From: a bacterium
GTDB lineage: Bacteria; UBA8248; JACPRG01; G963555815
Direction of reading: 5' to 3'
NCBI GenBank assembly: GCA_965261595.1
Contig: CBDHDG010000007.1
Location: 768,001-832,000, forward strand
DNA length: 64,000 nucleotides
Position numbers and translations under genes: made by a program. This document shows positions 11,548 through 64,000 of this stretch, piece by piece; the stretch's first letter is position 1, and each line of letters opens with the position of its first letter. The notes below the pieces were generated by a model. That model did no database searches, had not been told where the DNA came from, and saw only the letters and a program-made list of their open reading frames with translations.

Positions 11548-11891
11548 AGGCGCGCCAGCGGCCCCGCCCCTTGCGCGGCCTTCGGATGAATCTGTGGTTT
11601 GAGGTCCCCCGCGGTACGCACACCATCCGTCCGCTCTGGACCCATACAGGCTATTTTATCCCATGACGGCGGAAGGTCAACCGGCTGCGGCGTCTCCGAC
11701 GGCCGAAACTGTGCGTGCGCTTGAGCGGGCAACCGATGTTTCCCGGCGATCTTTCCTTTTATCCCGATCCCGACGCCCGCTTGACGCTGCCTGGCCGATT
11801 GGCCAGCATGTTGTGGCCGACGTCGGAGGAAGGCGTCCGCCCCCGTTGAAATCGACTCCCTCGGATGACTTTTCAAGATTCAAGGAGCCTC

Positions 11892-43312: not shown

Positions 43313-43601
43313 TGTCTCCTTGAACGTAAACCATTAGAAACTGCTATTCAACAAACGACGAAAGTAAAACTCTCTGCGCTTAAAAAGACACATGTTACAT
43401 TCATCTCACCTAAGAAAGGTGAACTACCACAAGCCCGTCTAGGGTGAATTCAATATAGCAAGCCATTTAATAAGATAAAACGAGTTAAAAAAAGCTGAAA
43501 ATATCTACACTGAAGGATGTAAGGGAACAAACCTTTCCCCCGCTCTAGGGTTTTGTTGGACACTCGATTGATCCATGATTCATGGAGAAAGGGGTGTCGC
43601 G

Positions 43602-43988
43602 ATGAACGAACAAAAGCAAGAGGGGGCTTTGGCGGAGGGCGCCCGCAGGGCGAACGGAGCCAAGGCCCCAGGGCATCGCAGTGAGCGGGGTCGGTTCTCC
43701 TGCCAGCGCAAGCGGGAGGCGGTCCTGCGTCTTTTGCGGGGCGAGAGCCTGGAGACGCTCTGCCGCGAGTTGGGCACGACAGCGGCTCGGCTTTCCGCCT
43801 GGCGCGAGGCGTTCCTTCGCGCGGGCGAGGCGGCGCTCAAAGCCCGCCCGGCGGATGAGCGGGACGAGGAGAACGCCCGGCTCAAGGCCAAGGTGGGCGA
43901 ACTCACGATGGAGGGCGAGGTCCTGCGGGAGAAGATCGACCGCCTGGAGGCCGGCCGCCCTTTAGCCGGCAGGAGGTGGAGGCGATGA
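43602..43988 (+). CDS. IS3 transposase OrfA
   Basis: HTH (RKREAVLRLLRGE...LSAWR) plus coiled coil. Confidence 0.85.
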   Translation: MNEQKQEGALAEGARRANGAKAPGHRSERGRFSCQRKREAVLRLLRGESLETLCRELGTTAARLSAWREAFLRAGEAALKARPADERDEENARLKAKVGELTMEGEVLREKIDRLEAGRPLAGRRWRR

Positions 43989-44893
43989 GTCAGGCCCGCT
44001 TCACCTCCACGGGCAGAGCCTACGGCCTGAAGCGGGTGTGCGCCCTTTGAGGCTTGGCGCGCTCCACGGTCTACGCGCAACGGCGGCGAGAGGCGGTCCC
44101 CGTTCATGAACGCCCCACGCCCAATAAGCGCGGCCCTGTGGGCCCGTGCACCGATGCGGAACTCCTCGGCCACATCCGGCAGGTCCTGGAGGACTCTCCC
44201 TTCCATGGCGAGGGCTACCGCAAGGTGTGGGCGAGGCTGCGCTTCGCGGGCATCCGCACCAGCAAGGAGCGGGTGCGTCGCCTGATGCGGGAGGCGGGGC
44301 TTCAGGCCCCCCACCGGGTGGGCAAACCCCGAGGTCCCAAGGCCCACAACGGGACCATCCGCACCGAGCGGCCCGACCGAATGTGGGGCACGCACATGAC
44401 GACGACGGTGACCACCGAGGAGGGGATGGCCTCGGTGTTCGTGGCGGTGGATCACTGCTCGGTGGACTGCGTGGGGATCCATGCGGCCAAGAGCGGCAAC
44501 CGCTTCGAGGCCCTGGAGCCGATCCGGCAGGGGGTCGCCGAGCGCTTCGCCGGCTTGGAGGCGGACGTCGCCGAGGGGCTTAAAGTTCGTCACGACCACG
44601 GCCCCGCCTATCTGTCCGATGACTTTCAGCGGGAGATCGCCTACCTGGGCATGACCAGTTCGCCCAGCTTCGTGCGGGCGCCCGAGGGAAATGGCTACTG
44701 TGAGTGGTTTATCCGCATCTTGAAGGAGAATCTCCTGTGGGTGCGCTCTTTCGCCACCGTAGAGGAACTGCGGTGGGCGCTGCTTGAGTTCAAGAACCTG
44801 TACAACCATCATTGGATTCTCGAGGGCTACGGCTACCGAACGCCGGCCCAGGCAAGGCAGGAAAAACTCGCTCAAGTTGCGGAGGCCGCATGA
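43985..44893 (+). pseudogene. IS3 transposase OrfB (rve), premature TGA at 44048
   Basis: TGG in copy B is TGA here; [12 protein letters not shown]. Confidence 0.85.
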
Positions 44894-45282
44894 GGTCGAA
44901 TACCCTCACCAGAGTGTCCAATAACCCAGGGGCGGTCCACCTTTGATTACTTCTTTGAAGCGGAGTGTGAGGAATAATGGCGTCGAGTTATGGAGGGGGA
45001 AAAGGGGTCAGATCTATTTTTTGCGAAATATGGGGTCTGACCCCATTACCCCGCGATTGTCTCCTGTCAAGATTTGACGCCGTCTCATCCTCGAATTCCT
45101 GTTTGACAGGTTCGGTAGAGAGCGGTCTAATCGGGCTAAACAGCAAGGAGTGGTGGGTACGGGCCTGTCCTGATTTGAAATGAGAAAATCCGGTCTCTAC
45201 GCCGATGATTTGACACATCCAATTGCGACCCGATGTTCCTTCTTCCCCGCACCGCACCCCTGTCAACCAGGAGGGCAAGCCG

Positions 45283-46775
45283 ATGGCTGGCGATCTCTTT
45301 TTCACCAACGGCTTCATCATCACCCTCAACCCGAATGGGGATATCTTTGAGAATGGCGATCTCCTGGTCCGCGAGGGTGTCATCGAGGCTGTCGGAACAA
45401 ACTTGGAGGCCCCGCCTGATTTCGATGGCTCCCTCATGGATCTCCAGGGAAAGCTCGTCCTCCCCGGTATGGTCAACTGCCACTGCCACTTCGAAGAGAC
45501 GGCCATCCGCACTCTCAACTACGGGTTGCCCCTGGAAACCTGGCTCTCATACAAGATTTCCGCTCTCAAATTTCTCGATCTATCAAAGGAAGAGCTCACG
45601 GCTATCCTGACCCTCACCTGCGTCGACATGCTGGAACATGGCGTGACCTCAGGGCTCAACCACATGAGGGCCGGCAGGGCCGTCGAGGAGGACAGTCTGG
45701 ACGCGGCCATCGCCGCGTTTGTCGCCTCGGGGCTGAGGGCCGTGCTCTGCCCCCAGATCTCCGATCGCCCGTTACGAGACCAAATCCCCATCGACCTGGA
45801 GGGCCTGCCGGATTCGGTCCGGGCGTGGTTCGCGGCGGAGCAACCCCCCCCACGGAATTGATCCTCGAGCGCGCGGAGGCCGTGCTTGACAAGGCCGAGG
45901 GCGCCCGGTCTTCCCGCGTCTCGGGAGGCATTGGCCCCTCATCGCCCCGGGGGTGCACGGACGCGCTTCTCCGGGGTTGTGCGGACTTGTCGGAAAAGCG
46001 CGGCGTTCCGCTTCACACCCATCTTCTGGAAAGCCGAACGCAGGTTCATCAAGGACGGAAGATGTACGGTTCCACCATCCCGGAGCACCTCCGCGACCTG
46101 GGTTATCTCTCCCCCCGGACATCCTTCGCCCATGCGATCTGGGTCAGTGAAGGGGACATCCGGCTTTTGGCCGAGACCGGTTGCAGGGTGGCGCACAACC
46201 CCGCGTCCAACCTTAAATTGGGGAGCGGAATCGCGCCCGTGCGGAAATACCTGGATGCCGGCGTGCCCGTAGGGCTTGGAATCGACGGAGCGAACAGTAG
46301 CGATTAGGGGAGCGTCTTTCACCAGGCGCATCTCGCGGCGCTGGTTCACAACATTCGGGAAGGGGATCCAGAGCGTGGGGTGGCCCCTGTCGAAGCCCTC
46401 CGTATGGCCACCACGGGCGGTGCGGCGGTGATGCTGATGGAGGATCGGGTGGGAACCATTGAGCCGGGCAAGCACGCAGACCTGGTCGTGCTGAACCGGA
46501 CGCTGAATTTCGAGCCCTGGATCGACCCTTTGAACAGCCTCGTTTTTGCGGAGGATGGGGAATCGGTCGATCAGGTTTTCGTGGAAGGCGAAGAGGTGGT
46601 TCGAGACGGGCGGGCCGTCTGCGCGAATCGGGAGGAGATGCTGAAAACCGTCGAAGGGGCGGCGAAGCGGCTCCGGGAAAATCGTCCCGCCGCCCTGGCC
46701 GAAGCGGATGAGTTACACCCTCACCTCATGGCCTTATCCAGAACGTACTCCGCCCTTCCGCTGGATCACGCCTGA
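45283..46775 (+). pseudogene. Amidohydrolase (AtzA/MtaD-like), frameshift near 45850 plus in-frame TAG 46305-46307
   Basis: NCHCH, HTHLLE, AHAIW, HNPASNLKLGSG, GIDG, GKHADLV spread over three ORFs. Confidence 0.8.
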
Positions 46776-48355: not shown

Positions 48356-48934
48356 TCAGGTCCAACATTTCCCAAGTTTCTCACGAAGGTCGGGAAAGAG
48401 GAAAGTGGCCAGCTTCAGGGCCAGGCGCATCAGTTCCGGATTGGCGTCGTTGTTGGCATTGGCCAGATGCTCCAGAAACCGGCTCCCGGTCTTACCGATC
48501 TTCGGCGCCACCTCCGTCAGCCAGATAGTGCACCTCAACCGCTTCCACCTGGCAAAAAAATGGCCGTATCTCGTTGAACTTGTGATGCCGCCAATGCTGG
48601 AGCAGGCGCGCCGTTTCCGGCGTGACCTGCCAATCGTTGGGATTCGGCAGGCTGCGCCACCGGTCTACATGGCGGCGCAGCTCATTGATGACCGGCGTGG
48701 GGTCGTACCGTTGCTCCTCGGTCGAAAGCCCTTTGCCTTCGTCAAAGACGATGGTTTTTTGCTCGGTAGCGCCCTTGCGCTTTCGGGGCTTTGGCACAGG
48801 CGTGATGAACTCTGCGTGGCGACGTCTTTCGATGATCTGGTGGGTCGGCTGGCCCTCCTCATCCAACTCCCAGTGGCGAGCTGGGTGCTCGTAAGGGGAA
48901 TTGAGGATCGGGTGCTCAAAAAAGGCTCAGTCAT
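48356..48934 (-). pseudogene. Type III restriction (Res) subunit N-terminal fragment
   Basis: PILNSPY.HP.RHWEL, INELR..VDRWR, T..LLQHW, RPFFCQ.EAVE, RLALKLAT; frameshifted and truncated. Confidence 0.75.
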
Positions 48935-49511
48935 TCAGAAGGCTCCAGACAGGCCAATTATTCGATTGCTAGGAAATGACCATGTCAGGCGACATAATCC
49001 CCCAAGGATCCCATTTTTAGAAGAACCTTAGCACAATACTCTCTTTTCGGGCCAAGCATCTCCTCATGGCGGGGTCGGAGGATGGAGCAGACCGCGAAGG
49101 AGGCCCAGGGCCAAGTCTTACATTCTAATGTTTTCCGACTTTCGTCCTACTTTTTGAAAAGAAAAGTGGTGGAATTGGGGTCGGACTCTAATTTCTTGCT
49201 CCGACGACTCCAGTCAAAACCGGGTCAACTCCAGGGGTGGATTGGGGCGGGGGATTTTTCGGGCCTCCCCCGGAAGGGCCGTGAAATTCGGGTTCGGCGA
49301 CCTCACAAGACCAAACACCCAACGGGGCGGGTCCGGGGAAGCCGGTTCAAACCAGCAACACCGTCCCGCTTCATTGACAGATGAGAGATGTTAAAGATAA
49401 AAGGAAAACTTAATGAAACATCGTTTTGAGATGGGGGTGACGGCGTGAAATCCGGCCATGACGGGCGAGAACGCGGCCATTTCCTTCGTTCAACAAAGGG
49501 GGGGATTCGAG

Positions 49512-50510
49512 ATGGTTTTTGCGAGACGGACGTGCAAATGGGCTTTCGGAACGGCTGCCGTTCTCGGGCTGGTTCTCAGCCTGGGGGTCGCCGCTTATCC
49601 GGCCGAGAAGATCCAGTTCCAGAACTGGTGGGTCTGGCAGCCGAACACCAGCCCCTTCTGGCTGGCCATCGACAGTGGCTTCTATAAGGCGGAGGGCCTG
49701 GACGTCAATTACGTCGAGGGCAAAGGGTCGTCGTACGCCATTCAGGCCGTCGGGGCCAATAAGGCGGACATCGGCGTGTCCGACCTGGGCACGGCCGCTT
49801 TCGGCATATCCAAAAAGACCCCCCATCAAGGCCATCTTCTCCTTCCTGCAAAGCGGGCCCCAGGCGGTCATCTCGCACAGGGAGACCGGGATCAAAAACC
49901 CGAAAGACTTGGATGGAAAGCGGCTGGCGTTCGGCCCGGCGGACAGCGGCTGGATCCTCTTCCCCGCCTTCGCCAGCGCCAACGGCATCGACATGTCGAA
50001 GATCATCCAGGTGAGCGCGGGGCCGGCCTCGATGCGCCAGCTTCTTCTCGCCAAAAAGGTAAACACGATTCTCAACTACTTCACCTCCATTCCCGAGATG
50101 GCGTCCCGGGGCGCGGACCTGACCTATCTTCGCTACGCCGACTATAAGGTGAGCCTCCTGGGCGGCGGGCTGATTGCCCATACCGAGACCCTCAAGAACC
50201 GGGGCGCGATGCTCCGAAAGTTCGTCAAGGCCACAACGAAGGGGTTTGCGGAGGCCATGAAGGATCCGGAAAAATCAATCACCGGCCTGATGAAGCGGGC
50301 CCCCATGACGGTCTCGAAGAAGAATATCGCGATCCAAAACCTGAAGATGTCGCTGAGCCTGCTGCACACGAAACGCTCCAAAGGCAAGGCCATCGGCTGG
50401 ATGGACAGGAAGGACTGGGAGAGCACCATCCATCTGTTGGCAAAGTATCGGAAAATGAAGCCGCTCGCTGTGGATCGGTACTTCACCAACGCATTTTCCC
50501 GAAGAACTGA
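49512..50510 (+). CDS. NMT1/THI5-like ABC substrate-binding protein, copy 1 (frameshifts near 49820 and 50495)
   Basis: Close paralog of 50968-51966. Confidence 0.85.
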
Positions 50511-50559
50511 GCCGCTTAACCCGGACCGCTCGGCGGCATTTACGCAGGTGCCCCCTCTT

Positions 50560-50735: not shown

Positions 50736-50967
50736 GGCTTGGGGTGGATGTTTGACAGCGCCTGTTATCGAGATCGCTGGCACCGCGCGGCCGATTAAAA
50801 ACCGGGGATCTCTGACTGTCCCGCTTCATTGACAGATGGGAGAAGTTGAAGGTATAAGGTAAACTTACAGGGATGTCGTTTCTGGATGACGGTCGCTGCG
50901 TGAAATTCGGCCGCGATGGATGAAGAATGCGGCCATCTTCTTCGTTCAACAAAAAGGATGATTCGAG

Positions 50968-51966
50968 ATGGTTTTTGCGAGACAGATGTTCAAATGGACT
51001 TTCAGTATGGCTGCTGTTCTCGGGCTGGTTCTTAGTCTCGGGGCTAGCGTTTACGCGGGTGAGAAGATCCAATTCCAGAACTGGTGGGTCTGGAACCCAA
51101 ACATCAGCCCCTTCCACCTGGCCATCGACAACGGCTACTACAAAGCGGAGGGCTTGAATGTTAACTACGTCGAAGGCAAAGGGTCATCGATGGCCATTCA
51201 GGCGGTCGGGGCCGAGAAGGCGGACATCGGCGTGTCCGACCTTGGAACAGCAGCCTTCGCCATATCCAAAAATACCCCAATTAAGGCCATTTTCTCCTTC
51301 TTGCAAAGCGGGCCCCAGTCGGCCGTCTCACACAGGGAGACTGGGATCAAAAAGCCGAAAGACTTAGAAGGAAAGCGGATTGCATTCGGCCCAGCAGATA
51401 GTGGCTGGATTCTCTTTCCCGCCTTTGCGGCCGCAAATGGCATCGACATGTCGAAGATCATTCAGGTGGCTGCGGGACCTTCCTCCATCCAGCAGCTTCT
51501 CCTCGCTAAAAAGGTGGATGTCGCCCTCACCTATTTCACCTCCGTTCCCGAGATGGCGTCCCAAGGCGCGGATCTCACTTATCTTCGTTACGCCGACTAT
51601 AAGGTTAGTCTTATTGGTGGTGGGTTAGTTGTCCATACCAATACAATCAAAAATCGGGGAGCGATGCTTCGAAAGTTTGTCAGAGCTTCGTCGAAGGGAT
51701 TTGCAGCAGCTCGAAAAGATCCGGAGAAGTCAGTCGCAGGTCTTATGAAACGGGCTCCCATGACTATTTCAAAGAAGAAGATTGCTGTCCAAAACCTAAA
51801 GATGTCACTGAGTCTCTTGCACACGAAACGCTCCAAAGGCAAGCCCATCGGCTGGATGGCTCCGGAGGATTGGGAGGACACGATTCGCCTGTTGGCGAAG
51901 TACCGAAAGATGAAGGCGCGGCCCGTGGATCAGTACTACACCAACGCGTTTTTCTCGAAGAACTGA
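50968..51966 (+). CDS. NMT1/THI5-like ABC substrate-binding protein, copy 2
   Basis: Signal peptide; GYYKAEGL, EGKGS, PKDLEGK, YYTNAF. Confidence 0.9.
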   Translation: MVFARQMFKWTFSMAAVLGLVLSLGASVYAGEKIQFQNWWVWNPNISPFHLAIDNGYYKAEGLNVNYVEGKGSSMAIQAVGAEKADIGVSDLGTAAFAISKNTPIKAIFSFLQSGPQSAVSHRETGIKKPKDLEGKRIAFGPADSGWILFPAFAAANGIDMSKIIQVAAGPSSIQQLLLAKKVDVALTYFTSVPEMASQGADLTYLRYADYKVSLIGGGLVVHTNTIKNRGAMLRKFVRASSKGFAAARKDPEKSVAGLMKRAPMTISKKKIAVQNLKMSLSLLHTKRSKGKPIGWMAPEDWEDTIRLLAKYRKMKARPVDQYYTNAFFSKN

Positions 51967-52200
51967 GACGGAGCGGGACCTGGGCCAGTCCGCCCGGGTC
52001 CCGCCCGTGAGGCCTCTCTGAAGTGTTCCGATGGTCCCCGGTTCCACCCGCGGCCGAGGTCGGGGCGATAGGCGCGAGCATTACCGGGAAAGGGGACACC
52101 TGACGCGGGGTCCCCGGCGGGCCGGACAACGCCGGAAGCATCCGGAATCTGGAATCCCCCCCCCTCCCCCCCCCTGAGGCCGACGTAGGAGAAAAAAAGC

Positions 52201-53406
52201 ATGGAGTCGAAATTCCGGGTCGACCGACAATTCCCCGTCCAGGTCATGGACGCCGTGACGGACACGAGAGAGATCCTGGCGCACGCCAAGCAACAGGCGG
52301 AGGAGCGGAACCTTCAGGATTACGTCGTTTTCGACGTGGACTCCCACATCATCGAGTCCCTGCACTGGAAAGACGTCGCCCGGTACATCGAAGACCCCGT
52401 CATCCGCTCCCAGGCCATGAATTTCGAAAAGGGCGCCTATGGCTTAAACGCGGCCAGCGGATTGCTTTACCAGGACGTGGGCGGGCGCATTCCTCACGAG
52501 CTGGGATTGGGCGAGCCGGTCGACGACCCCGATGTCCATCGAGATGTCGTCCTGATCCGGCGCGCCATGGACAGCCTGAGCGTGGACTATATGGTGGTGT
52601 TCCCCACGTCGATGCTCCAACTGGGCATGAGCCCGCAGCTCCCCATGCAGGTCCTGCTGACCCAGGCGTTCAACCGCTTTATGGTGGAGGACATCCTCAA
52701 GGCCGATGACCGGATCAAGACGCTGATCTGTCTGCCTTTCAACGACCCGGCGGCGTCCCTGCGCACGGTCGAGGAATTCGCGGACGAGCCCGGCGTGATC
52801 GGATTCATGATCACCAGTGTCCGGAACAAGCCGGTTCAAGACAACCAATACATGAAGATTTACGCGACCCTCGAAGAACGGGGGCTGCCGCTGACCTTCC
52901 ACGCCGGGTATTACTGGCACGAGCCCGTGATGGAGCAATTCCACCGGTTCCTCGGCGTACACTCGGTGGGCTTCGTTCTGTGGAACCTGGTGCATATGGT
53001 CAACTGGGTGATTCACGGCCTGCCGGAGCGGTTTCCGAATCTCAAAGTCATTTGGGTCGAGAGCGGGTTGGCCTGGCTGCCCTTCATCATGCAACGGCTG
53101 GACAACGAGTATATGCTCCGAAGCTCCGAGGCGCCGGGGCTCAAGCGGCTGCCGAGCGAGTACATCCGCGAGATGTTCTTTTCGGGCCAACCCCTGGAGC
53201 GGAGCAACATGAAAGCGCTGGAATTGTCCTTTGAAATGGTCAACGCCGAGACCCAGTTGCTCTATGCCTCGGATTGGCCCCACCAGGACTTCGATTTGCC
53301 CAGCTCGATCTTCGACCTGCCGTTCCTGTCCGAGCAGGGGAAACGGAACATTCTGGGCGAAACCGCGCTGAAACTTTTCAACCTGGAAAGACCGAACGGG
53401 AAGTAA
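52201..53406 (+). CDS. Amidohydrolase_2 family protein
   Basis: DVDSH, FHAG, ERFPNLK..VESG..W, YASDWPH. Confidence 0.9.
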   Translation: MESKFRVDRQFPVQVMDAVTDTREILAHAKQQAEERNLQDYVVFDVDSHIIESLHWKDVARYIEDPVIRSQAMNFEKGAYGLNAASGLLYQDVGGRIPHELGLGEPVDDPDVHRDVVLIRRAMDSLSVDYMVVFPTSMLQLGMSPQLPMQVLLTQAFNRFMVEDILKADDRIKTLICLPFNDPAASLRTVEEFADEPGVIGFMITSVRNKPVQDNQYMKIYATLEERGLPLTFHAGYYWHEPVMEQFHRFLGVHSVGFVLWNLVHMVNWVIHGLPERFPNLKVIWVESGLAWLPFIMQRLDNEYMLRSSEAPGLKRLPSEYIREMFFSGQPLERSNMKALELSFEMVNAETQLLYASDWPHQDFDLPSSIFDLPFLSEQGKRNILGETALKLFNLERPNGK

Positions 53407-53524: not shown

Positions 53525-54895
53525 ATGCCTTTCGATGACCCTCGGGATTTCTGCGCGCACCTGGAAGAGCGGGGAGAGCTCATCCGGATCCGCGACGAGG
53601 TGGACCCCGCATACGAAGTCGGCGCGTACATCCGCAAGACCTCCGACCAGCAGGGGCCCGCTCTCCTGTTCGAGAATGTCAAGGGACACGACATGTGTAT
53701 GGTCGGAGGGATTTTCGCCAGCCGTCGGCGGGTCCTCCTGGCCCTGGCCTACGACCGGGAGGACATCTACGAACGGTTCGGCCACGGGATCGCCAACCCC
53801 GTCCCCAACCGTCTCGTGGACACCGGCCCCTGTAAAGATGTTATCCTGAAAGGGGACGAGGTGGACCTCGGCCGGCTGCCCATCCCCATCTATTCCGAGC
53901 AGGACAAGGGCCCCTTTGTCACGCACGGCATCCAGATCAGCAAAGACCCGGAAGACGGGACGAAGAACGCCTCGATCTACCGGATGCACCTCGCCGGGAA
54001 ACGCGAATTCAGCATTCACGCCGAAAAGCATCACCACCTGACGTACCAACATGTCAAGGCCTCGGCCAAGGGCGAGCCGCTCGAGATCGCCGTGGCCATG
54101 GGATGCGACCCCGTCGTGATGCTGGCCACCCAGGTGGGGGCCTCCTATGGGGTGGATGAGCTGGAGATCGCCGGCGGCCTGAAGGGCAAGCCCGTCGACA
54201 TCGTCAAATGCGAGACAGTGGACCTGGAAGTGCCCGCCGCGACGGAGATCGTCTTCGAGGGCCTGCTCCACCCCGAGCGGCGGGAGCACCACGGGCCCTT
54301 CGGAGAATACAGCGGGTATTACGGCGAGATCACGCACTCTCCCATCATGGAGGTGACGGCCATCACCCACCGGCGGGACCCGGTCTATCACGCCGGCCTG
54401 ACGGGGATGCCCATGACGGAGAACCACTTCCTCAAGCAGATCCCGCACGAGGTCACCCTGCACCAGGAGTTGAAATCGAAGTTCCCCGGCCTCCGGGACA
54501 TCCACTCCACGGCGGCCGGGTGCTGTGATTTCATGGTCTTCATCAATCTGAAGCCGAACATTCCGGGGGAAGCGCGCAACGTCATTCTGGCCGCCATGGC
54601 GAGCGCCAAGCGCCCCAAGTTCGTCGTCGTGTGCGACGAGGACATCGACATCTTCGATCACACCCAGGTGCTCTGGGCGATCTCTACGCGCGTGCGCCCG
54701 GCGAAGGACGTGATCATCATCCCCGATTACAACACGCCCGCCCTGGACCCGTCGGTGGGGCAAAACCAGTTGGGTTCGGCGATGGGGCTCGACGCCACAC
54801 GGCCCTTCGGGGAGCCGTTCGCCGAAGTGCCCGCCTTCCGCGGGATGGACCGCGTTCCCGACCTGCTGGCGCTGATGCGGGCCGGACAATCGTGA
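53525..54895 (+). CDS. UbiD-family (prFMN-dependent) decarboxylase/carboxylase
   Basis: PALLFENVKG, IYRM, EIVFEG, HGPFGE, DEDID..D...VLWA. Confidence 0.92.
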   Translation: MPFDDPRDFCAHLEERGELIRIRDEVDPAYEVGAYIRKTSDQQGPALLFENVKGHDMCMVGGIFASRRRVLLALAYDREDIYERFGHGIANPVPNRLVDTGPCKDVILKGDEVDLGRLPIPIYSEQDKGPFVTHGIQISKDPEDGTKNASIYRMHLAGKREFSIHAEKHHHLTYQHVKASAKGEPLEIAVAMGCDPVVMLATQVGASYGVDELEIAGGLKGKPVDIVKCETVDLEVPAATEIVFEGLLHPERREHHGPFGEYSGYYGEITHSPIMEVTAITHRRDPVYHAGLTGMPMTENHFLKQIPHEVTLHQELKSKFPGLRDIHSTAAGCCDFMVFINLKPNIPGEARNVILAAMASAKRPKFVVVCDEDIDIFDHTQVLWAISTRVRPAKDVIIIPDYNTPALDPSVGQNQLGSAMGLDATRPFGEPFAEVPAFRGMDRVPDLLALMRAGQS

Positions 54896-54953
54896 TTGAA
54901 TCGTTCGGGGTTGCCTGAGAACGGAAGAGCATCCGGCCGCCCCCCCGGCGGCG

Positions 54954-56387
54954 ATGGAACCCGACACAAGAGAAGGAGCCCGCGACGTGCCCAAAGATCT
55001 AAGAACCTTCCTCGAGCTGGCGGAGATGAAATTGCCGGGCGGCGTTCGCCGGGTCCGACGCGAAGTCGACCCCGAGTACGAGCTCTGCGCCATTCTTCGC
55101 AAGCTTCAGCTCCGGGGGGAAGTCCCCATCGTCATCTTCGAGAAGGTGAAGGGCTCGGACATGCCGCTGGTGGTGAACGCCATCGCCGACGAGCCGAAAC
55201 TCGCCCTCACCCTCGAGGTGACCGAGCGGGAGCTTCTCAAAACGTTCGTCAAGCGCGAGGCGAATCCCATCCCGCCCAAGGAGGTCAAGGACGGGCCGGT
55301 GATGGAACAGGTGTTCACCGGGAAGGATGTGGACCTCTACCGCCTTCCCATGACCACCCAATGCGAGAAGGACAGCGGGGCCTTCCTCACCGTCGGGGTG
55401 ACCATCTGCCGGGACCCCGACACCGGCACCTACAACTCCGGGATCTACCGGCAGATGCGCCACGAGCGCAACGTGCTCGGGATGAGCTTCGAGCCGCAAT
55501 CTCACCTGGGCTACTGCTACCGGAAGATGGAAAAACAGGGCAAAGGCCTGCCCATCGTCACCTACCTGGGCCACCATCCGGCCACGCTGCTGGGGAGCCA
55601 GTCGCGGCTTCCCCTCGGGGGAAACGAGATGAGCGTCATGGGCGGGCTGATGGAAGAGCCGCTCGAGCTGACGCCCTGCCAGAGCCAGGATCTCATGGTT
55701 CCGGCCCGCGCCGAGATCGCCATCGAGGGGTTCATCCGGCCGAACGAGCGGCGGTGGGAGGGCCCGTTCGGCGAATACACCTGGTACTACGGCTACGCGC
55801 GAAACAGCCCCGTCTTCGAGGTCACGGCCATCACTCACCGTAAAAACCCGTACTACCAGGACCTGTTCAGCGTCTTCCCCGAGCACCTGCTGGCCGGCCG
55901 GGTCGGGCGCGAGGCCGTCCTGTTCGAGAAGGTGCGGGCCAGTTGTCCATCGGTCCGTGACGTCTCCATGCCCATGTCGGGCACGTGCCGGCAGACGGCC
56001 TACGTCCAGATCGACAAGCAGTTCGACGGCGAGGCGAAGATGGCGGCCCTGGCGGCCATGGCCTCGGACGCCTTCATCAAATGGGTGGTCGTGGTGGACA
56101 AGGACGTCGACGTCCACAACGAGAGCCAGGTCCTGTGGGCCATCTCCACCCGGACGCAGCCGGACCAGGACACGTTCTTCGTTCCGAACTCCGTCGGCTC
56201 CCGTCTCGACCCCTCCGGTTACTCGGTGTGGAGCCGCCACGAGCGAAACGGGATGAACACCAAGTGGGCCATCGACGCGACCATGCCCATCGAGGCCCCC
56301 TTCGAGGAGGTGGCCGACGTGCCCCAGGACGTCCTGGACCGGATCGACCTGGGGGATTACTTCGAGGATTTAAAGGAGACGCACTGA
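54954..56387 (+). CDS. UbiD-family decarboxylase/carboxylase (second)
   Basis: IYRQ, EIAIEG, EGPFGE, VDKDVD, LDPS, IDAT. Confidence 0.92.
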   Translation: MEPDTREGARDVPKDLRTFLELAEMKLPGGVRRVRREVDPEYELCAILRKLQLRGEVPIVIFEKVKGSDMPLVVNAIADEPKLALTLEVTERELLKTFVKREANPIPPKEVKDGPVMEQVFTGKDVDLYRLPMTTQCEKDSGAFLTVGVTICRDPDTGTYNSGIYRQMRHERNVLGMSFEPQSHLGYCYRKMEKQGKGLPIVTYLGHHPATLLGSQSRLPLGGNEMSVMGGLMEEPLELTPCQSQDLMVPARAEIAIEGFIRPNERRWEGPFGEYTWYYGYARNSPVFEVTAITHRKNPYYQDLFSVFPEHLLAGRVGREAVLFEKVRASCPSVRDVSMPMSGTCRQTAYVQIDKQFDGEAKMAALAAMASDAFIKWVVVVDKDVDVHNESQVLWAISTRTQPDQDTFFVPNSVGSRLDPSGYSVWSRHERNGMNTKWAIDATMPIEAPFEEVADVPQDVLDRIDLGDYFEDLKETH

Positions 56388-56388
56388 C

Positions 56389-56745
56389 ATGGCGGAAACC
56401 AGCACGGCAACGGAGATCGGCGAGCTTCGTCAGGCGTTGTCCGTCCTTCACCTGGACCTTCTCATCCACAAAGGCTTCTCGGCCAGCGCCCGCTGGAAGG
56501 CGGAGCGGGGCGTGGACGCCGCGCTCCCCGAGTTCGACGCGGCCGGCCGGGTCCTGGAAGGATCCCCCTGGTCGGATGACGCCCGCGCGGCGGTGAAAAA
56601 TCTCGAGGGGGCGCTCGCTGGATACCGGGAGGCCATCGCCTCCTTCGATCCAACACGGGAGACCTATTTCCGCACCCTGCTGATCGACGCCCTCTGGGGC
56701 CTCAAAGAGGCCGTGTTCGGCTGGCCGCCGGAGCATGGCGTCTAG
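56389..56745 (+). CDS. Small hypothetical protein coupled to UbiD
   Basis: ATG 1 bp after the UbiD stop, AAGGAG RBS. Confidence 0.7.
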   Translation: MAETSTATEIGELRQALSVLHLDLLIHKGFSASARWKAERGVDAALPEFDAAGRVLEGSPWSDDARAAVKNLEGALAGYREAIASFDPTRETYFRTLLIDALWGLKEAVFGWPPEHGV

Positions 56746-56869: not shown

Positions 56870-57914
56870 GTGACACGGAAAGGAGAGGGGAGAATAAAGA
56901 CTCGCATAGCCGTTCTCGCCGCGTTTCTGTTCTTATCGGGAGGGCTGAGGGGGCAAACCGCCGCGGCCGGGGAGCCGTTCCTGCTCGACTGGATCATCTA
57001 CGGGAAGCACGCGCCCTTCTTCGTGGTCCAGGACAAAGGATTTTTCAAAAAGGCGGGGCTGGACGTCTCGTACAAGCGCGGATTCGGCTCCGGCGACACG
57101 ATCAAGAAGGTCGGGGCGAAGGCCGCCCGTCTCGGGTTCGCCGACGCCAGCTCGCTGGTCGAGCGCCAGGGCCAACGCCAACGTCCCGGTGAAAGAGGTC
57201 GCGATGATCCACGCCAAGTCTCTGGAGATCGTGGGCTTCCTCAAAGAGAAGGGCTACAAGACGCCCAAGGACCTGATCGGCCAAAGGTACGGCAATCCGC
57301 CGTACAACCGCTGTTGCTTCCCGGCCCTGGCGGGCGCCAACGGATTCGACGCCAAATCCATCAAGGAGATCGGGATGGAGGTCGGCTCACTCATCCCCTC
57401 GCTCCTGACCAACCGGGTCGATTTCATCGCCCTGTTCGCCACCGAGCTGCCGACCCTGCGCGCCAAAGCCGCCGACGTCGGCAAAAAGGTCGGCGCCTTC
57501 TATTTCTCCGACTGGGGCGTGGACGCCTATAACAACGGCATCGTCGTCCACGAGGACAACATCCGATCCGACCCGAAGTTCGTACGCGGCGCCGTCAAGG
57601 CCGTCATGGAAGGCTGGGCGTGGGCCCTCCTTAATGTGGATGAGACGGTGAAGAACTTTTTGAAATACGCGCCGGGCATGAGTGAGAAGCTGATCCGGGG
57701 GCATCTCAACGTCGCCATCGAGCACCTGTTCGATGATGGCGTCCGGCAGCACGGCCTGGGGTACATCGACCACGACAAAATGGGCGCGACCGCCGGGATC
57801 ATCACAAAATACTTGAAGCTGAAGAAGCGCATCCCGGCCGAAGACCTCTACACGAACCGGTTCCTTCCCCAGTGGGCCTCGATCAAGGCGGCCCTGGGCG
57901 ATCGGGCCAGGTAG
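56870..57914 (+). CDS. NMT1/THI5-like ABC substrate-binding protein (frameshift near 57165)
   Basis: LDW..YGKHAPF, GFGSGD, LYTNRF. Confidence 0.85.
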
Positions 57915-58064: not shown

Positions 58065-58928
58065 TCATCCCCCGGCGGACATCGAGATCACGACGACGCC
58101 GATGAAGACCGTCAGCGCGCCCGCGGCCAGCCGCCAGGTGACCTGTTCGAGCTTCTGGATCAGAACCCTCGCTATCAGGATGGAAACAAGCGGGGAGGTG
58201 TAGATGAGGGGGGTCACGAAGCTGACGGTCCCGAGGCTCACGGCCTTGTAGAGGGTGATGAAGGCGGAAGCGTACCCGAGACCCCCCATGAGGAAGAACC
58301 CAATCCCCCGGAGGTCCCCGCCCCACCGGCTTTCGCGCGGAACCAGGGACACGCCCGCCAACAGGGCGATGAGCGCTCCCCCCGAGGAGATGGCGGTCCC
58401 GAGCAGGGGGTCCGGCAGAGACCGGATGCCCATTCGCATGAAGACGGGAATCAGGGCGAAGAAGACCGTTGGAATTAGACCGAAAACCGCCGCGGACGGG
58501 GATATCCGCGTCGCGGACCGATCGACCAGGATGCTGACGACCCCCCCGACGATGAAGACGGCGCCCACCGGGATGTGCCATGTGGGCCGCTCCCCCATGA
58601 AAACCACGCCGATGAGGATCACCAGAAAGGGCGTGACGGAGTTGAGCACCGCCGCCCGCGAGACGCCCAGCCTGCGGATGCTGAAGTAGTATAGGAGCCG
58701 CCCAGGCGCCAGGCCCGCCACTCCCACAAGGAAAAACCACCCGGCCGCGGGCCAAAGCGCGCCCGGCCCGCTCCCCCGAATCCCGATGACGATCCCCAGG
58801 GCCGTGGCCATGGAGATGGAATTGAAGATGGCCCCGGTGTAGGGCGTGGCGGTTCGAACGCCCATCCGGGTGAAGATGTCGGCCGCGCCGAAGCAGAACC
58901 CGCTCAAAAGCGCCCAGAAGACCGTCAT
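58065..58928 (-). CDS. EamA/DMT family transporter
   Basis: About 10 TM, two EamA repeats. Confidence 0.85.
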   Translation of the reverse strand: MTVFWALLSGFCFGAADIFTRMGVRTATPYTGAIFNSISMATALGIVIGIRGSGPGALWPAAGWFFLVGVAGLAPGRLLYYFSIRRLGVSRAAVLNSVTPFLVILIGVVFMGERPTWHIPVGAVFIVGGVVSILVDRSATRISPSAAVFGLIPTVFFALIPVFMRMGIRSLPDPLLGTAISSGGALIALLAGVSLVPRESRWGGDLRGIGFFLMGGLGYASAFITLYKAVSLGTVSFVTPLIYTSPLVSILIARVLIQKLEQVTWRLAAGALTVFIGVVVISMSAGG

Positions 58929-59380
58929 GTGGCGATCAAACCGTGCGCGTCCTTTTCAAAAAAATTCTCCCCGATCCCGCCCGCCCGCCGGTTCGCCGTT
59001 CCGGGGCTACCCTAGCATTTCTCGCCAACGCGTCGCCTGAATCCTGATTTGCCGAGGAATCACCCCTGGTGGTTCGTTTCCGCTGATGCTGACAGATGAT
59101 TCTTCAAGCGCTCGGTTTCCGGGCAGGGGCGGACCCTCCGCCCGTGGACAGGTCGCCGAAGCGAATGGTTCTGAACGGATTTAGTTATGGCCCAAAAAAA
59201 TACCGGGCGAGGACGTTCGGCCTAAGCCTACCAGCCCCCGCCCGGCGGGTTTTGTATTCGGTCCCGGCCTGATTCGGACGAGACCCAGGAGCGAGTCTAG
59301 GCTTCAGGACGCACACTCCCCGCTCCCGTAAGAGACGGGAATTCCGGCGGCGGCGGCTCTATCTCCACCGTTTCCGAAGC

Positions 59381-59503
59381 CTTGGCGCAACGAAACGAAA
59401 TCCTGTTATTCCGGTTGTCTGGTTGCCTATTGTTGCGATTCGCTGCGCGGAAGTTCGTCGTATTGTCGTTGTTCCAGGAACCGCCGCGCAAAACGCGCCC
59501 GTT
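59381..59503 (-). other. DGR template repeat (TR), CLec/FGE-sulfatase type
   Basis: Reads RVLRGGSWNNDNTTNFRAANRNNRQPDNRNNRISFRCAK with 10 AAC/AAT codons, a few nt after the RT stop; boundaries approximate. Confidence 0.9.
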
Positions 59504-59509
59504 TTTGAC

Positions 59510-60807
59510 TCACCCCTTTCCTGCAAAAACAGCGTCTCTCAAAACCCTCCCCCTGACCCGATACGCATCCGCGTGGGAGGCATGGGCGATCCAACTCATG
59601 ACCGACTGTCGGACGTCATCAAGCGTAATGGTTCCCTCCCGATAACCCGCTTGCAGCTTTCTCAGCCTTCGCCTCGCGTGGCGGACATTGGATTTTCGCA
59701 ACAGCCGGTGGGTCGGAAAAACGCGGTAGCCCAGGAAATCAATCCCGTCGCTCACGCGGTAGACGCGGCTTTTTCGGGGGTGCAGCCTGAGGCGAATCGC
59801 CCCCAGACGCTCCCGGCAGGCCGCCAGGGCGTCCCAAAGGGCGGGCTTGTCGTCCCCGAAGATGACAAAATCGTCCACGTACCGGACGTAGAACCTCCGC
59901 TCAAGGGTCTCCTTCACCCAGTGGTCGAACCCGGTCAGGTGAACGTTGGCGAAGAACTGGCTGGTCAGGTTGCCGATGGGGATGCCGTGGGGTCTCTCAA
60001 ACGGCGTGAACAGGTCGTCCCCGGAGAAGTAGAGACCGTCCTCGGAGCGCATCGATCCCAGGACCTTTCGGATCAGCCCGAGGGTTCTCTCGCACGCGAT
60101 CCGTTTCGCGACGGCCGCCATGAGGATCTCGTGGTCCATGCTCGGGAAATACCGCACGATGTCGCCCTTGAGGACGTACCGGTTCTTCCGGCAGAACGCC
60201 TGATACCGGTCCACGGCGGCGTGGGTCCCCTTTCCCCTCCGGCAGGCGTACGAGTCGCCTGGACGGCTACCGGGACCTGTGGATGACACCCTCTGAACAT
60301 CCCCGGAGAAGTAGAGACCGTCCTCGGAGCGCATCGATCCCAGGTCGGATCAGCCCGAGGGTTCTCTCGCACGCGATCCGTTTCGCGACGGCCGCCATGA
60401 TCTCGTGGTCCATGCTCGGGAAATACCGCACGATGTCGCCCTTGAGGACGTACCGGTTCTTCCGGCAGAACGCCTGATACCGGTCCACGGCGGCGTGGGT
60501 CCCCTTTCCCCTCCGGCAGGCGTACGAGTCATGGATGAAGGTCTTGTCGAAGATCGGCTTGATGACGTTGCACAAGGCATGGTGGACCACCCGGTCGCGG
60601 AATGACCCGGGGCTTGGTGTCCCGGACGGTGAACCGCGTGTAGCCGCCGGGTTGATAAGTTTGGTCAAGCAATTCCCTCTGAAGCCGGGGGATCTCGCGC
60701 TCCAATTCGAAAAGGAACCGCGCGGTGGAGGGTTTCGAGCGCTTGCCTTTGGCTGCCTTACGAGCCGCCAGAAGGAGGTTATCGAAAGAGCACACTTGAG
60801 AATAAAG
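59510..60807 (-). pseudogene. DGR reverse transcriptase, 5'-truncated, frameshifted, with internal duplication
   Basis: [74 protein letters not shown]. Confidence 0.9.
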
Positions 60808-60853
60808 TGGACCGCCCCTGGGTTATTGGACACTCGGGTGAGGGTATTCGACC

Positions 60854-61762
60854 TCATGCGGCCTCCGCAACTTGAGCGAGTTTTTCCTGCCTTGCCTGGG
60901 CCGGCGTTCGGTAGCCGTAGCCCTCGAGAATCCAATGATGGTTGTACAGGTTCTTGAACTCAAGCAGCGCCCACCGCAGTTCCTCTACGGTGGCGAAAGA
61001 GCGCACCCACAGGAGATTCTCCTTCAAGATGCGGATGAACCACTCACAGTAGCCATTTCCCTCGGGCGCCCGCACGAAGCTGGGCGAACTGGTCATGCCC
61101 AGGTAGGCGATCTCCCGCTGAAAGTCATCGGACAGATAGGCGGGGCCGTGGTCGTGACGAACTTTAAGCCCCTCGGCGACGTCCGCCTCCAAGCCGGCGA
61201 AGCGCTCGGCGACCCCCTGCCGGATCGGCTCCAGGGCCTCGAAGCGGTTGCCGCTCTTGGCCGCATGGATCCCCACGCAGTCCACCGAGCAGTGATCCAC
61301 CGCCACGAACACCGAGGCCATCCCCTCCTCGGTGGTCACCGTCGTCGTCATGTGCGTGCCCCACATTCGGTCGGGCCGCTCGGTGCGGATGGTCCCGTTG
61401 TGGGCCTTGGGACCTCGGGGTTTGCCCACCCGGTGAGGGGCCTGAAGCCCCGCCTCCCGCATCAGGCGACGCACCCGCTCCTTGCTGGTGCGGATGCCCG
61501 CGAAGCGCAGCCTCGCCCACACCTTGCGGTAGCCCTCGCCATGGAAGGGAGAGTCCTCCAGGACCTGCCGGATGTGGCCGAGGAGTTCCGCATCGGTGCA
61601 CGGGCCCACAGGGCCGCGCTTATTGGGCGTGGGGCGTTCATGAACGGGGACCGCCTCTCGCCGCCGTTGCGCGTAGACCGTGGAGCGCGCCAAGCCCCAA
61701 AGGGCGCACACCCGCTTCAGGCCGTAGGCTCTGCCCGTGGAGGTGAAGCGGGCCTGACTCAT
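60854..61762 (-). CDS. IS3 transposase OrfB
   Basis: rve domain; ATGA overlap with OrfA. Confidence 0.88.
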
Positions 61763-62145
61763 CGCCTCCACCTCCTGCCGGCTAAAGGGCGGCCGGCCTC
61801 CAGGCGGTCGATCTTCTCCCGCAGGACCTCGCCCTCCATCGTGAGTTCGCCCACCTTGGCCTTGAGCCGGGCGTTCTCCTCGGCCCGCTCATCCGCCGGG
61901 CGGGCTTTGAGCGCCGCCTCGCCCCCGCGAAGGAACGCCTCGCGCCAGGCGGAAAGCCGAGCCGCTGTCGTGCCCAACTCGCGGCAGAGCGTCTCCAGGC
62001 TCTCGCCCCGCAAAAGACGCAGGACCGCCTCCCGCTTGCGCTGGCAGGAGAACCGACCCCGCTCACTGCGATGCCCTGGGGCCTTGGCTCCGTTCGCCCT
62101 GCGGGCGCCCTCCGCCAAAGCCCCCTCTTGCTTTTGTTCGTTCAT
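61759..62145 (-). CDS. IS3 transposase OrfA
   Basis: Same as copy A. Confidence 0.85.
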   Translation of the reverse strand: MNEQKQEGALAEGARRANGAKAPGHRSERGRFSCQRKREAVLRLLRGESLETLCRELGTTAARLSAWREAFLRGGEAALKARPADERAEENARLKAKVGELTMEGEVLREKIDRLEAGRPLAGRRWRR

Positions 62146-62450
62146 CGCGACACCCCTTTCTCCATGAATCATGGATCAATCGAGTGTCCAACAAAACCCT
62201 AGAGCGGGGGACAGCCGCTCAACTCACCGACTATACTGAAGATGCCCAGCCTGTAATCCAGGCAGAGATTCGCAAGCGGGGCATACAAAGGTATGAGGTT
62301 GAGCGAAAAAGAATTTCGAACACAATCCCTTCGCCAACACTGGCTGGCACCGGGACCCAAAATATCCAACGAAAACTTCCTATTTGGACCACTGGAGTTG
62401 ACCCGGTTTGGTGGACACCTGATGATTTGGGGGTAAAGGAGGTGTTCACG

Positions 62451-62765
62451 ATGCCACAGACTCACCCACGCTATCCAATGGAGTTCCGCTGCCAGATGGT
62501 AGAGTTGGTCCGGGCGGGACGCACGCCCGAGGCGCTGGCGCACGAGTTCGAGCCCTCGGCGCAGACGATCCGCACCTGGGCCCATCAAGCCGACGTTGAC
62601 GAGGGGCGTCGCAAAGACGGGCTCACGAGCGATGAGCGGGAGGAGTTGCGCCGACTTCGCCGCGAGAACCGACAGCTCCGCCAGGAGCGGGAGATCTTAG
62701 CAAAAGCCGCGGCCTGGTTTGCTCGGGATACCGATTCGATCCCGTCCGGATCTACGGGTTCGTGA
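62451..62765 (+). CDS. IS3 transposase OrfA
   Basis: RYPMEFR..MVELV, ELRRLRREN..L..EREILAKAAAWFA. Confidence 0.9.
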   Translation: MPQTHPRYPMEFRCQMVELVRAGRTPEALAHEFEPSAQTIRTWAHQADVDEGRRKDGLTSDEREELRRLRRENRQLRQEREILAKAAAWFARDTDSIPSGSTGS

Positions 62766-63610
62766 GGGCGAACCAGGCCATGTATCGGACCGCCACCATG
62801 TGCCGGGTGCTGGGCGTCTCCTCCAGCGGCTACTACGCGTGGCGCAGGCGCGCGCCGTGTGCCCGCTCGTGTGCCGATCGGGCGCTCACCAAACGCATTC
62901 AGGCGATCCACGAGCGTTCTCGGGGGACTTACGGCGTGCCGCGCGTCCATGCCGAGTTGGAGGCTGAGGGAGTGCGTGTGGGCCGCAAGCGCGTCGCCAG
63001 GCTGATGCGTGGGGCGGGACTTGCGGGCGTCAGTCGGCGCAAGGGAGCGCGCACGACGCAGCGCCGGCAGGAGGCGCGGCCGGCCCCTGATCTGGTGGAC
63101 CGCAACTTCACGGCCGAGGCCCCCGACCGGCTGTGGGTGGCCGACATCACCTACGTTCCGACATGGGCGGGGTTTTTGTATCTGGCCGTGGCGCTCGATG
63201 CGTTCAGCCGGCGCATCGTGGGGTGGTCGATGGCCACACACCTGCGGGCCGAGTTGGTGCTCGACGCGCTCGACATGGCGCTGTATAAGCGCCGTCCCCG
63301 GGCCGTCATCCACCACTCCGACCAGGGCACGCAGTACACCTCGGTCGCCTTTGGGCAGCGCTGCCGCCAGGCGGGCGGGCGTCCCTCCATGGGTTCGGTC
63401 GGGGACTGCTACGACAACGCGCTGTGTGAGAGTTTTTTCGCCACGCTGGAGTGCGAGCTCCTCGCTCGCCACAGTTTCCGCACCCGGGCCGAGGCGCGCA
63501 TGGAGGTGTTCGGGTTCATCGAGGGCTTCTACAACCCGCATCGTCGGCACTCCTCCATCGACAACCTGTCACCCGTTAACTACGAAAGGAGACAACAACG
63601 CACACCCTGA
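62762..63610 (+). CDS. IS3 transposase OrfB
   Basis: WVADITY, HHSDQG.QY, DNALCESFF (intact DDE). Confidence 0.92.
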   Translation: MRANQAMYRTATMCRVLGVSSSGYYAWRRRAPCARSCADRALTKRIQAIHERSRGTYGVPRVHAELEAEGVRVGRKRVARLMRGAGLAGVSRRKGARTTQRRQEARPAPDLVDRNFTAEAPDRLWVADITYVPTWAGFLYLAVALDAFSRRIVGWSMATHLRAELVLDALDMALYKRRPRAVIHHSDQGTQYTSVAFGQRCRQAGGRPSMGSVGDCYDNALCESFFATLECELLARHSFRTRAEARMEVFGFIEGFYNPHRRHSSIDNLSPVNYERRQQRTP

Positions 63611-64000
63611 AAACCCAAGTGCTTAACTCTCCACGAAACCGGGGTAAGTCCAGGTGCAATTGGGGTTGGATTGGCATATAAATCCCTTGTGTTGCAAAAG
63701 ACTCCGGACTTTTCACTCGGGCAGACAACATCATCCGAGCAAGAGGAGGAGCAATTACGCGGGGAAGCGAGGGATGAAGCGGAAGTTGCGAGATTGTTAA
63801 AGGAAAAGGAGAACCGGAACGCCAATCCATAACTTCCTCTATGGTGCTCAAGATTCCCACCACACACCCTGCTCATTTTTTCAGTGGTCTGCCCCCGTGG
63901 AACGCGACCCAAGCTGGAAGGTTGGAGAATTTGGAAACCGGGTTTGGGTTTCCTTTTGTCCTGAGGGTTGGTGGGAAATTTCCATCGCCAGGGAAAATCA

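Follow-up and report, generated by a model that had tools for sequence, protein, structure and literature searches.

The window analysed here is a 64-kb stretch of DNA with a GC content of 62.5%, and the minus-strand reverse transcriptase (RT) locus in it is, in all likelihood, a non-functional relic, namely the decayed 3′ half of a chromosomal DGR whose upstream genes were lost via an IS-associated rearrangement. Two branches had been offered in the original prediction, and the one in which the locus is an orphan that lost avd and target is supported here, with the additions that the RT is also broken and that IS3-family elements stand at the upstream position. Diversification of remote targets by this locus acting alone is unlikely because the RT, judged from its sequence, is a pseudogene and the position of avd and target is occupied by ISs.

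Surviving and missing parts of the locus

Relatives were sought with the C-terminal 248 residues of the RT. This search scored the 8000 candidates that shared most words with the query, 7947 of them at E<=0.001, and the best 120 were listed. The top match, P0001, is an intact 351-aa homologue from public data, encoded on a 3.65-kb contig, and is 100% identical to the window RT over the last 248 residues. It is referred to below as the intact allele. An alignment of 20 of the best 120 was scanned against species-representative genomes, giving 595 stretches, 583 of them confirmed, from which the best 80 were taken further. At these best 80 of 583 loci the RT is 44-58% identical to that of the window.

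A template repeat (TR) and variable repeat (VR) were called where self-comparison of a locus gave a repeat pair of at least 50 nt with at least 80% of the mismatches on the adenines of one copy. Among the 61 related loci with such a pair, the TR is 3′ of the RT in 53 (median gap 38 nt, range 9-1290) and 5′ in eight, and the VR ends upstream of the RT in 59 (median 516 nt). One VR was found in 39 loci, two in 18 and three in four. Six of the ORFs that separate VR and RT were tested, and all six pass the cut-off of PF22296 as bAvd-like. Of the VR-bearing genes, six were tested; all six end in an FGE-sulfatase domain, and three also have KAP or NACHT NTPase domains. Extrapolating from these relatives, at 44-58% identity, the ancestral order would have been target (with the VR at its 3′ end), avd, RT, TR and spacer-like RNA. 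The following parts of this arrangement were found in the window:

59510..60807, minus strand: DGR-type RT pseudogene, corresponding to P0001 codons 7-351 in three frames (tblastn)
59378..59506 (approximate ends), minus strand: TR, reading KNGRVLRGGSWNNDNTTNFRAANRNNRQPDNRNNRISFRCAKA in the target frame
59239..59387, minus strand: spacer-like DGR RNA element directly 3′ of the TR, with a long-range helix and a stem-loop

A segment with 10 AAY codons had been reported shortly past the RT stop and assigned as a TR for targets of the CLec-fold (FGE-sulfatase) type, and the present analysis agrees on both points. The asparagine-rich segment (RVL)RGGSWNNDNTTNFRAANRNNRQPDNRNNRISFRC, encoded at 59390-59488 (minus strand), comes 12-20 nt beyond the stop and has exactly 10 AAC/AAT codons. 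If RVLRGGSW (59497) is taken as its start, the TR begins 12 nt past the RT stop, a position after the stop that agrees with 53 of the 61 relatives. Of its 111 nt, 33 are A, and the encoded peptide is that of an FGE-sulfatase domain end, RVLRGGSW...GFRCA. The TR matches a profile built from the target C-termini of 51 relatives (E=1.7e-12, positions 227-271 of 276), as well as positions 217-255 of the 255 in the Pfam FGE-sulfatase model (E=4.5e-4, below the curated cut-off). Going by these sequence matches, the resemblance of the TR to target C-termini is more than chance. The only matches of the target C-terminus profile in the window fall within 59300-59509, and tblastn with 57 targets of relatives found a match at the TR only, this being the sole place where each of the 25 listed targets matched. 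When the 43-aa TR peptide was searched against longer proteins, four of the seven candidates were matches. These four are ORFs derived from the TRs of other DGRs, rich in Asn and 73-84% identical, two being fused to their RT. A VR-bearing target was not recovered among the seven candidates, which is weak evidence either way.

No VR copy had been seen in the 64 kb, and three approaches bear this out. An ungapped, A-masked scan of the 111-nt TR on both strands and a scan of 40-nt sub-windows allowing at most three non-A mismatches each returned only the TR itself, and blastn-short found only the TR, with the next best matches in the window at 13-21 nt (E>=0.14). A pattern of 51 letters of the TR, with every adenine replaced by N, had no match in 185,579 species-representative genomes; the TR itself was also unmatched there and the source genome is apparently outside this collection. 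A VR-flank motif, which in relatives follows 47 of 87 VRs at a distance of no more than 80 nt and none of 61 TRs, has one chance-level match in the window (0.66 expected), unrelated to any VR-like sequence.

Avd is present in most DGRs, not all. Neither it nor a CLec target gene had been noticed in the 64 kb, and Pfam, tblastn and profile searches give the same result. In the Pfam scan of 59 window ORFs, no bAvd, 23S_rRNA_IVP or FGE-sulfatase gene was found. For avd, tblastn of the window with 49 Avd candidates of relatives gave only scattered matches (best E=0.012), and a profile of 40 relatives searched against the six-frame translation of the window had a best match at E=4.3. The Avd of one relative (L001) was compared with the PDB by sequence and had no match.

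The RNA element came to light when the 140 nt past the TR were aligned for those 53 relatives in which the TR is downstream. A long-range helix connects the first bases beyond the TR with a GAAGAGU-like stretch about 60 nt further on, and a 9-pair stem-loop lies between the two. Compensatory changes were seen at all 17 predicted pairs, in at least one sequence each and in up to 31 of the 53 at a single pair. The hairpin originally placed at about 59324-59340 was recovered in the minimum-free-energy fold, and sits inside the stem-loop of the conserved element, where the register is 7 pairs in the single-sequence fold and 9 pairs in the covariance model. This model, R1, was built from the 53 relatives with the window left out. 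It matches the window over its full length (1-121) with 46.7 bits (E=1.3e-11, from a rough calibration), a score typical of non-cyanobacterial members, and no non-standard pair was flagged in the alignment. R1 also matches 73 of the 80 related loci (23-115 bits), including 20 of the 27 outside its training set. A second R1 match in the window, at 49574-49663 (E=0.075), lies inside a repeat of a binding-protein gene with no helices aligned, and was taken as chance. Comparison of the RNA element with 4227 Rfam families gave no match at gathering thresholds.

In the part of Handa et al. (bioRxiv 10.1101/2023.10.23.563531) that deals with the spacer RNA, this RNA is placed just past the TR and has an Avd-binding stem-loop and a priming site. 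The stem-loop is predicted there in 207 of 278 DGRs, mostly as a 9-bp stem with a tetraloop, and the helix in the window model likewise has 9 pairs, the commonest DGR stem length in that account (Handa et al., bioRxiv 10.1101/2023.10.23.563531). By analogy with what is described there, the RNA element in the window probably corresponds to the spacer RNA of Handa et al., and the modelled long-range helix may represent the template-primer duplex. Neither the TR nor the RNA element that follows it is shortened or visibly damaged. We note that an undamaged TR and RNA element would be equally expected if they were still in use.

Upstream of the RT, the window position that matches avd and target in most relatives holds two IS3-family elements instead:

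60808..62211 (about), minus strand: IS3-family element, here IS-A, abutting RT codon 7 (orfA 61759-62172, orfB 60854-61771)
62212..62384, no strand: lower-GC fragment of 173 nt, continuing at 63659-64000 with IS-B inserted between
62385..63658 (about), plus strand: IS3-family element, here IS-B (orfB 62762-63610), with a 3-bp ATT on both sides; ends probable

Transposase matches to IS-A were obtained from both Pfam and NCBIfam, with orfB below the curated cut-off of the IS3 family model, and IS-B scores 350 bits with NCBIfam transpos_IS3 (cut-off 160). A second copy of IS-A at 43536-44948 (plus strand) is 99.4% identical to the first over 1413 nt. An element that has simply inserted is recognisable by a short direct repeat at its flanks, and the second copy has one of 4-5 bp (CCTT/ACCTT); the copy beside the RT has unrelated flanks and no target-site duplication. 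As these flanks are unrelated, the two sides of the RT-adjacent IS-A were probably not neighbours originally, and the sequence of the RT junction speaks for a deletion or recombination associated with the IS rather than for a clean insertion. The lower-GC segment does not resemble avd or target genes. A search of 58900-61000 for sigma-70-like promoters, which is a weak test, was negative.

We consider it unlikely that the TR and RNA element still serve in trans as an extra template for an intact RT-Avd encoded elsewhere in the genome that would write into one or more remote VRs. Such use would suit a TR and 3′ RNA element that are full length and fit the family model, and an intact RT allele that is 100% identical over 248 residues is available in public data. 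There are also precedents. The survey figures of Wu et al. 2018 (PMC5758913) that concern target location include 45 of 372 DGRs with non-adjacent or remote targets, ten of these more than 100 kb away, and sharing of components between loci of one genome is documented in the relevant part of Dore et al. 2024 (PMC10907252). However, the promoter side of the cassette has been replaced by the IS, with the promoter search, weak as that test is, negative over the interval given above; the 64 kb contain no VR, the species-representative genomes (apparently without the source genome) yielded none, and nothing places P0001 in the same genome. A particular form of trans use, in which the dead RT's TR and RNA element would be a spare template for a P0001-like sister RT-Avd directed at remote FGE-sulfatase targets, is quite unlikely. 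If true, one enzyme would have more than one template, and fragmentation by ISs would not merely destroy the element but distribute DGR templates over the chromosome.

Lesions in the reverse transcriptase gene

That 59381-60807 does not hold a single RT reading frame had gone unnoticed originally. Comparison with P0001 places the parts of the gene in three frames, with a tandem duplication of 274 nt inside it and its 5′ end cut off by the IS at codon 7. The pieces are:

60807-60601, frame -2: RT residues 7-75 (tblastn of P0001)
60614-60324, frame -3: RT residues 76-173 (tblastn of P0001)
60256-59513, frame -1: RT residues 104-351 (tblastn of P0001), 100% identical
60598..60605, minus strand: net 14-nt deletion, the I75 codon (60603-60601) overlapping the F80 codon (60602-60600)
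60300..60530, minus strand: upstream copy of the tandem duplication, RT residues 104-183
60257..60299, minus strand: filler of 43 nt at the duplication junction
60018..60256, minus strand: downstream copy of the tandem duplication, colinear with the intact protein
59510..60334, minus strand: longest surviving ORF (274 aa), with 26 junction residues followed by RT residues 104-351

RT codons 1-6 are absent, and homology begins at L7 (60807), flush with the end of the IS3-family element (~60808). Further in, the I75 and F80 codons overlap by two bases, hence the net loss of 14 nt. This deletion removes S76-A77-A78-P79 from the fingers region and shifts the frame; S76, A77 and A78 are invariant in 20/20 aligned relatives. 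The duplication accounts for an insertion of 274 nt, including the 43-nt filler, and for a second frameshift. Its two copies align over 239 nt at 96.7% identity with no mismatches and two gaps; compared with the downstream copy, the upstream one has lost 3 nt at one place and 5 nt at another, without any substitution. A source for the filler was sought in the window with blastn-short, which found only the filler itself (next best 17 nt, E=0.036). The remaining differences from P0001 are two substitutions, A42E and E94K.

The locus does not encode a full-length RT enzyme, with codons 1-6 missing, SAAP deleted and a frameshifting duplication in the gene. The longest ORF is without the N-terminal third (residues 1-103) and without the K71-R73-I75-S76-A77-A78 stretch, which is invariant in 20/20 aligned relatives. 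Taken at face value, the assembled sequence is that of an RT pseudogene with several independent lesions, and production of an active RT from this locus would be impossible because the longest ORF, at 274 aa, lacks the N-terminal third.

These breaks could in principle be assembly or sequencing artefacts, the RT of the organism being intact, and some sequencing error in the assembly is possible because one frameshift in the window is at a C8 run and there are 43 homopolymer runs of at least 7 nt. Several other window genes are frameshifted, that at the C8 run among them, and an otherwise identical intact allele exists. Nevertheless, we regard this explanation as very unlikely. In this single assembly no RT lesion is at a homopolymer, neither the loss of 14 nt nor the 274-nt duplication with its 43-nt filler nor the deletions of 3 and 5 nt. 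Another pseudogene in the window has an in-frame TAG, a lesion of a kind other than an indel error. Moreover, repair of the frame would still leave the RT starting at codon 7 against the end of the IS, with avd and target absent.

Class of the reverse transcriptase

The original prediction of an RT with GIPIGNLTSQ and YVDD is borne out. Both the ORF list and the sequence contain this minus-strand peptide, in the ORF at 59510-60334 (minus strand) that ends at a TGA stop codon (59510-59512, minus strand). The motif-4 signature (I/L/V-G-x-x-x-S-Q), here I197-Q203, is invariant in 20/20 aligned relatives. IGxxxSQ is the signature of DGR RTs, and the alignment of the 20 relatives is consistent with this.

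The RT was classified by its relatives because the generic libraries gave no DGR-named model. No DGR-named RT model was returned by NCBIfam or PADLOC, and the best named matches in the generic libraries were to the group II intron RT (TIGR04416, E=2.8e-32) and DRT/UG families, all far below the cut-offs. Pfam RVT_1 was matched on two of the RT pieces. Relatives carry the JGI name 'retron-type reverse transcriptase', which is a generic source label. The closest RT relatives are DGR RTs, with an A-biased TR/VR pair in 61 of the 80 related loci. Among solved structures in the PDB, the intact allele scores highest (211 bits) with a chain of 328 aa named 'Reverse transcriptase', in 8ub7 and eight other entries; we take this chain to be bRT, the Bordetella phage enzyme. 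The best group II intron RT in the PDB scores 73.5 bits against the intact allele. The assignment to the DGR class made originally is thus upheld by the TR/VR pairs at related loci and by the scores against solved structures.

It is hardly credible that the RT is instead part of one from a group II intron, a retron or a defence system, and that the Asn-rich segment is there by coincidence, since the named library matches that would favour it are far under their curated cut-offs (112 bits vs 300 for TIGR04416, 38 bits vs 235 for the retron model NF038233), no group II intron or retron RNA was found with Rfam in the whole window at gathering thresholds, the segment past the RT fits the profile of target C-termini as well as the RNA model of the DGRs, and the TR/VR pairs and PDB scores given above also stand against it.

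Probable decay of the locus and comparison with known systems

The remnant lies between a gene for an EamA-family transporter (58065-58928) and the two IS elements. Two UbiD-family decarboxylase genes are nearby, the relatives of which have the JGI label 2,5-furandicarboxylate decarboxylase, and the closest named relative of the UbiD-like neighbour is from a Nitrospinota MAG (73% identity). No phage-like domains were found in the Pfam scan of the 59 window ORFs, a result that does not contradict the original remark on the lack of phage genes nearby. Other broken genes in the window are those for an amidohydrolase (a frameshift and an in-frame TAG) and for two binding proteins (frameshifts). 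A genome rich in IS elements and pseudogenes fits, because these other window genes are also broken.

Transcription, priming at the spacer, copying with errors at adenines and replacement of the VR make up the established DGR mechanism. In the relatives, the target-avd-RT-TR-spacer cassette would be transcribed, the RT-Avd complex would bind the spacer and prime there, and a cDNA copy of the TR, erroneous at adenines, would take the place of the VR. We propose that, in the lineage of the window, an IS-associated deletion or recombination removed the promoter, the target gene, avd and the first RT codons, and that the RT either gained its internal lesions afterwards or carried them already. Having neither Avd nor a local VR, the locus would no longer diversify anything. 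The intact look of the TR and RNA element may be due to their shortness and to how recent the decay is, as suggested by the 248 residues, two thirds of the protein, that are 100% identical to the intact allele. This identity, together with the lack of substitutions between the duplicate copies, would indicate that the decay is recent, or that it is polymorphic in the population.

With the chromosomal target-avd-RT-TR DGRs, represented here by the 80 related loci from cyanobacteria, Desulfobacterota-like MAGs, Nitrospirota and others, the window has in common the RT family (44-58% identity), the invariant IGNLTSQ and YxDD, a TR directly 3′ of the RT, and the RNA element. Unlike them, it is without avd, target and VR, and its RT is broken and 5′-truncated. 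The Bordetella phage BPP-1 DGR (mtd-avd-TR-spacer-brt) belongs to the same mechanism family and has a structured stem-loop spacer after the TR. The window differs from it in that the RT precedes the TR, the context is chromosomal, not phage, and the target type is different.

DGRs of the chromosomal kind diversify STAND/KAP-NTPase 'antigen sensor' proteins, according to the part of Dore et al. 2024 (PMC10907252) that deals with targets. The same paper, in its account of 'degenerate' DGR loci, describes machinery that is missing or pseudogenized and a shaping of these loci by transposons, alongside population variants, seen in long reads, in which the RT is still intact (Dore et al. 2024, PMC10907252). 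The degenerate loci of Thiohalocapsa PB-PSB1, as presented there, resemble the window in their missing or pseudogenized machinery and in having IS elements inside and beside them, and the intact variants in that population have a counterpart in the intact allele P0001 in public data (PMC10907252). However, PB-PSB1 is a different organism with different IS elements, and its incomplete loci, as far as that account of them extends, mostly keep their targets, and some are diversified in trans (PMC10907252), whereas in the window the targets are the missing part.

Viewed most probably as a decayed relic, the locus would be one more IS-eroded DGR locus, a situation already described for another bacterium, and is biologically minor. 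It is also a caution for genome scans, in that a good TR behind an RT that bears the DGR signature does not amount to an active element unless the reading frame, avd and the VR have been checked. The RNA element, on the other hand, is conserved across phyla (73 of 80 loci) and could serve as an independent marker of this DGR class.

Insertion sequences and the lower-GC segment

IS-A, the IS3-family element that abuts codon 7 of the pseudogene for the DGR-type reverse transcriptase (RT), is present in a second copy, and the lower-GC DNA (about 50-53 %) that it bounds is split by a further IS3-family element, IS-B.

43536-44948 (+), second copy of IS-A, 99.4 % identical over 1413 nt to the RT-abutting copy
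62212-62384 and 63659-64000, lower-GC segment

The second copy is flanked by a target duplication of 4-5 bp (CCTT/ACCTT), which indicates that IS-A was recently active in the source genome. Within the lower-GC segment, IS-B has the 3 bp ATT at each side. The two parts of this segment do not resemble avd (the gene for the DGR accessory protein), the target genes or the RNA model for the conserved element 3' of the template repeat (TR), and gave no Rfam hits.

Interrupted genes and assembly accuracy

Several genes elsewhere in the window are broken or incomplete, and these are listed with their neighbours.

23392-24309 (+), DDE_Tnp_1_4 transposase gene lacking the first ~127 profile positions
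28081-29502 (+), ABC transporter gene stopping within the ATPase domain (profile 1-71 of 137)
45223-46775 (+), amidohydrolase gene split into three ORFs
48492-48866 (-), 124-aa fragment matching positions 20-120 of 970 of the BPTD_3080 restriction endonuclease model
49360-50511 and 50815-51967 (+), paralogs of 1.15 kb in tandem (80.5 % identity)
53525-56745 (+), UbiD-family decarboxylase gene pair and a 118-aa ORF

The amidohydrolase gene is interrupted by a frameshift in a C8 run (~45844) and by an in-frame TAG (~46310); its pieces share 27-31 % identity with an intact paralog at 11865-13238. Copy 1 of the tandem paralogs is frameshifted near 49804-49823, and copy 2 retains an intact frame of 334 codons (50962-51963). 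Both are distantly similar (27-37 %) to an NMT1/THI5-like binding-protein gene (56870-57914), itself in two frames with a break near 57145-57180, where there is no homopolymer. The adjacent UbiD-family genes, preceded by an Amidohydro_2 gene (52201-53406), encode products of 456 and 477 aa, and in one source their relatives are labelled 2,5-furandicarboxylate decarboxylase; the 118-aa ORF that follows had no family hit. The window contains 43 homopolymer runs of at least 7 nt, mostly of G or C and with a maximum length of 10 nt. In view of these runs and of the several genes with frameshifts, the assembly may contain some sequencing error.

RNA element and T-rich motif in related loci

Among the best 80 of the 583 confirmed RT-related loci, seven were not matched by the RNA model (L004, L008, L018, L021, L022, L033 and L078). 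In the first five of these, the TR precedes the RT, suggesting that the RNA of this sub-group is arranged differently; L041, L076 and L079 also have an upstream TR and were matched.

Allowing up to 2 mismatches, a conserved T-rich motif, CTTTTACCCTTTG, was found no more than 80 nt downstream of 47 of the 87 variable repeats (VRs), in 32/61 loci, and downstream of none of the 61 TRs. Examples are as follows.

L001, 5020-5100
L005, 7401-7480
L009, 7606-7690
L023, 6767-6850

Among the examples inspected, a GC-rich inverted repeat often follows. In this class of DGRs, the motif may serve as the recognition element on the VR side.
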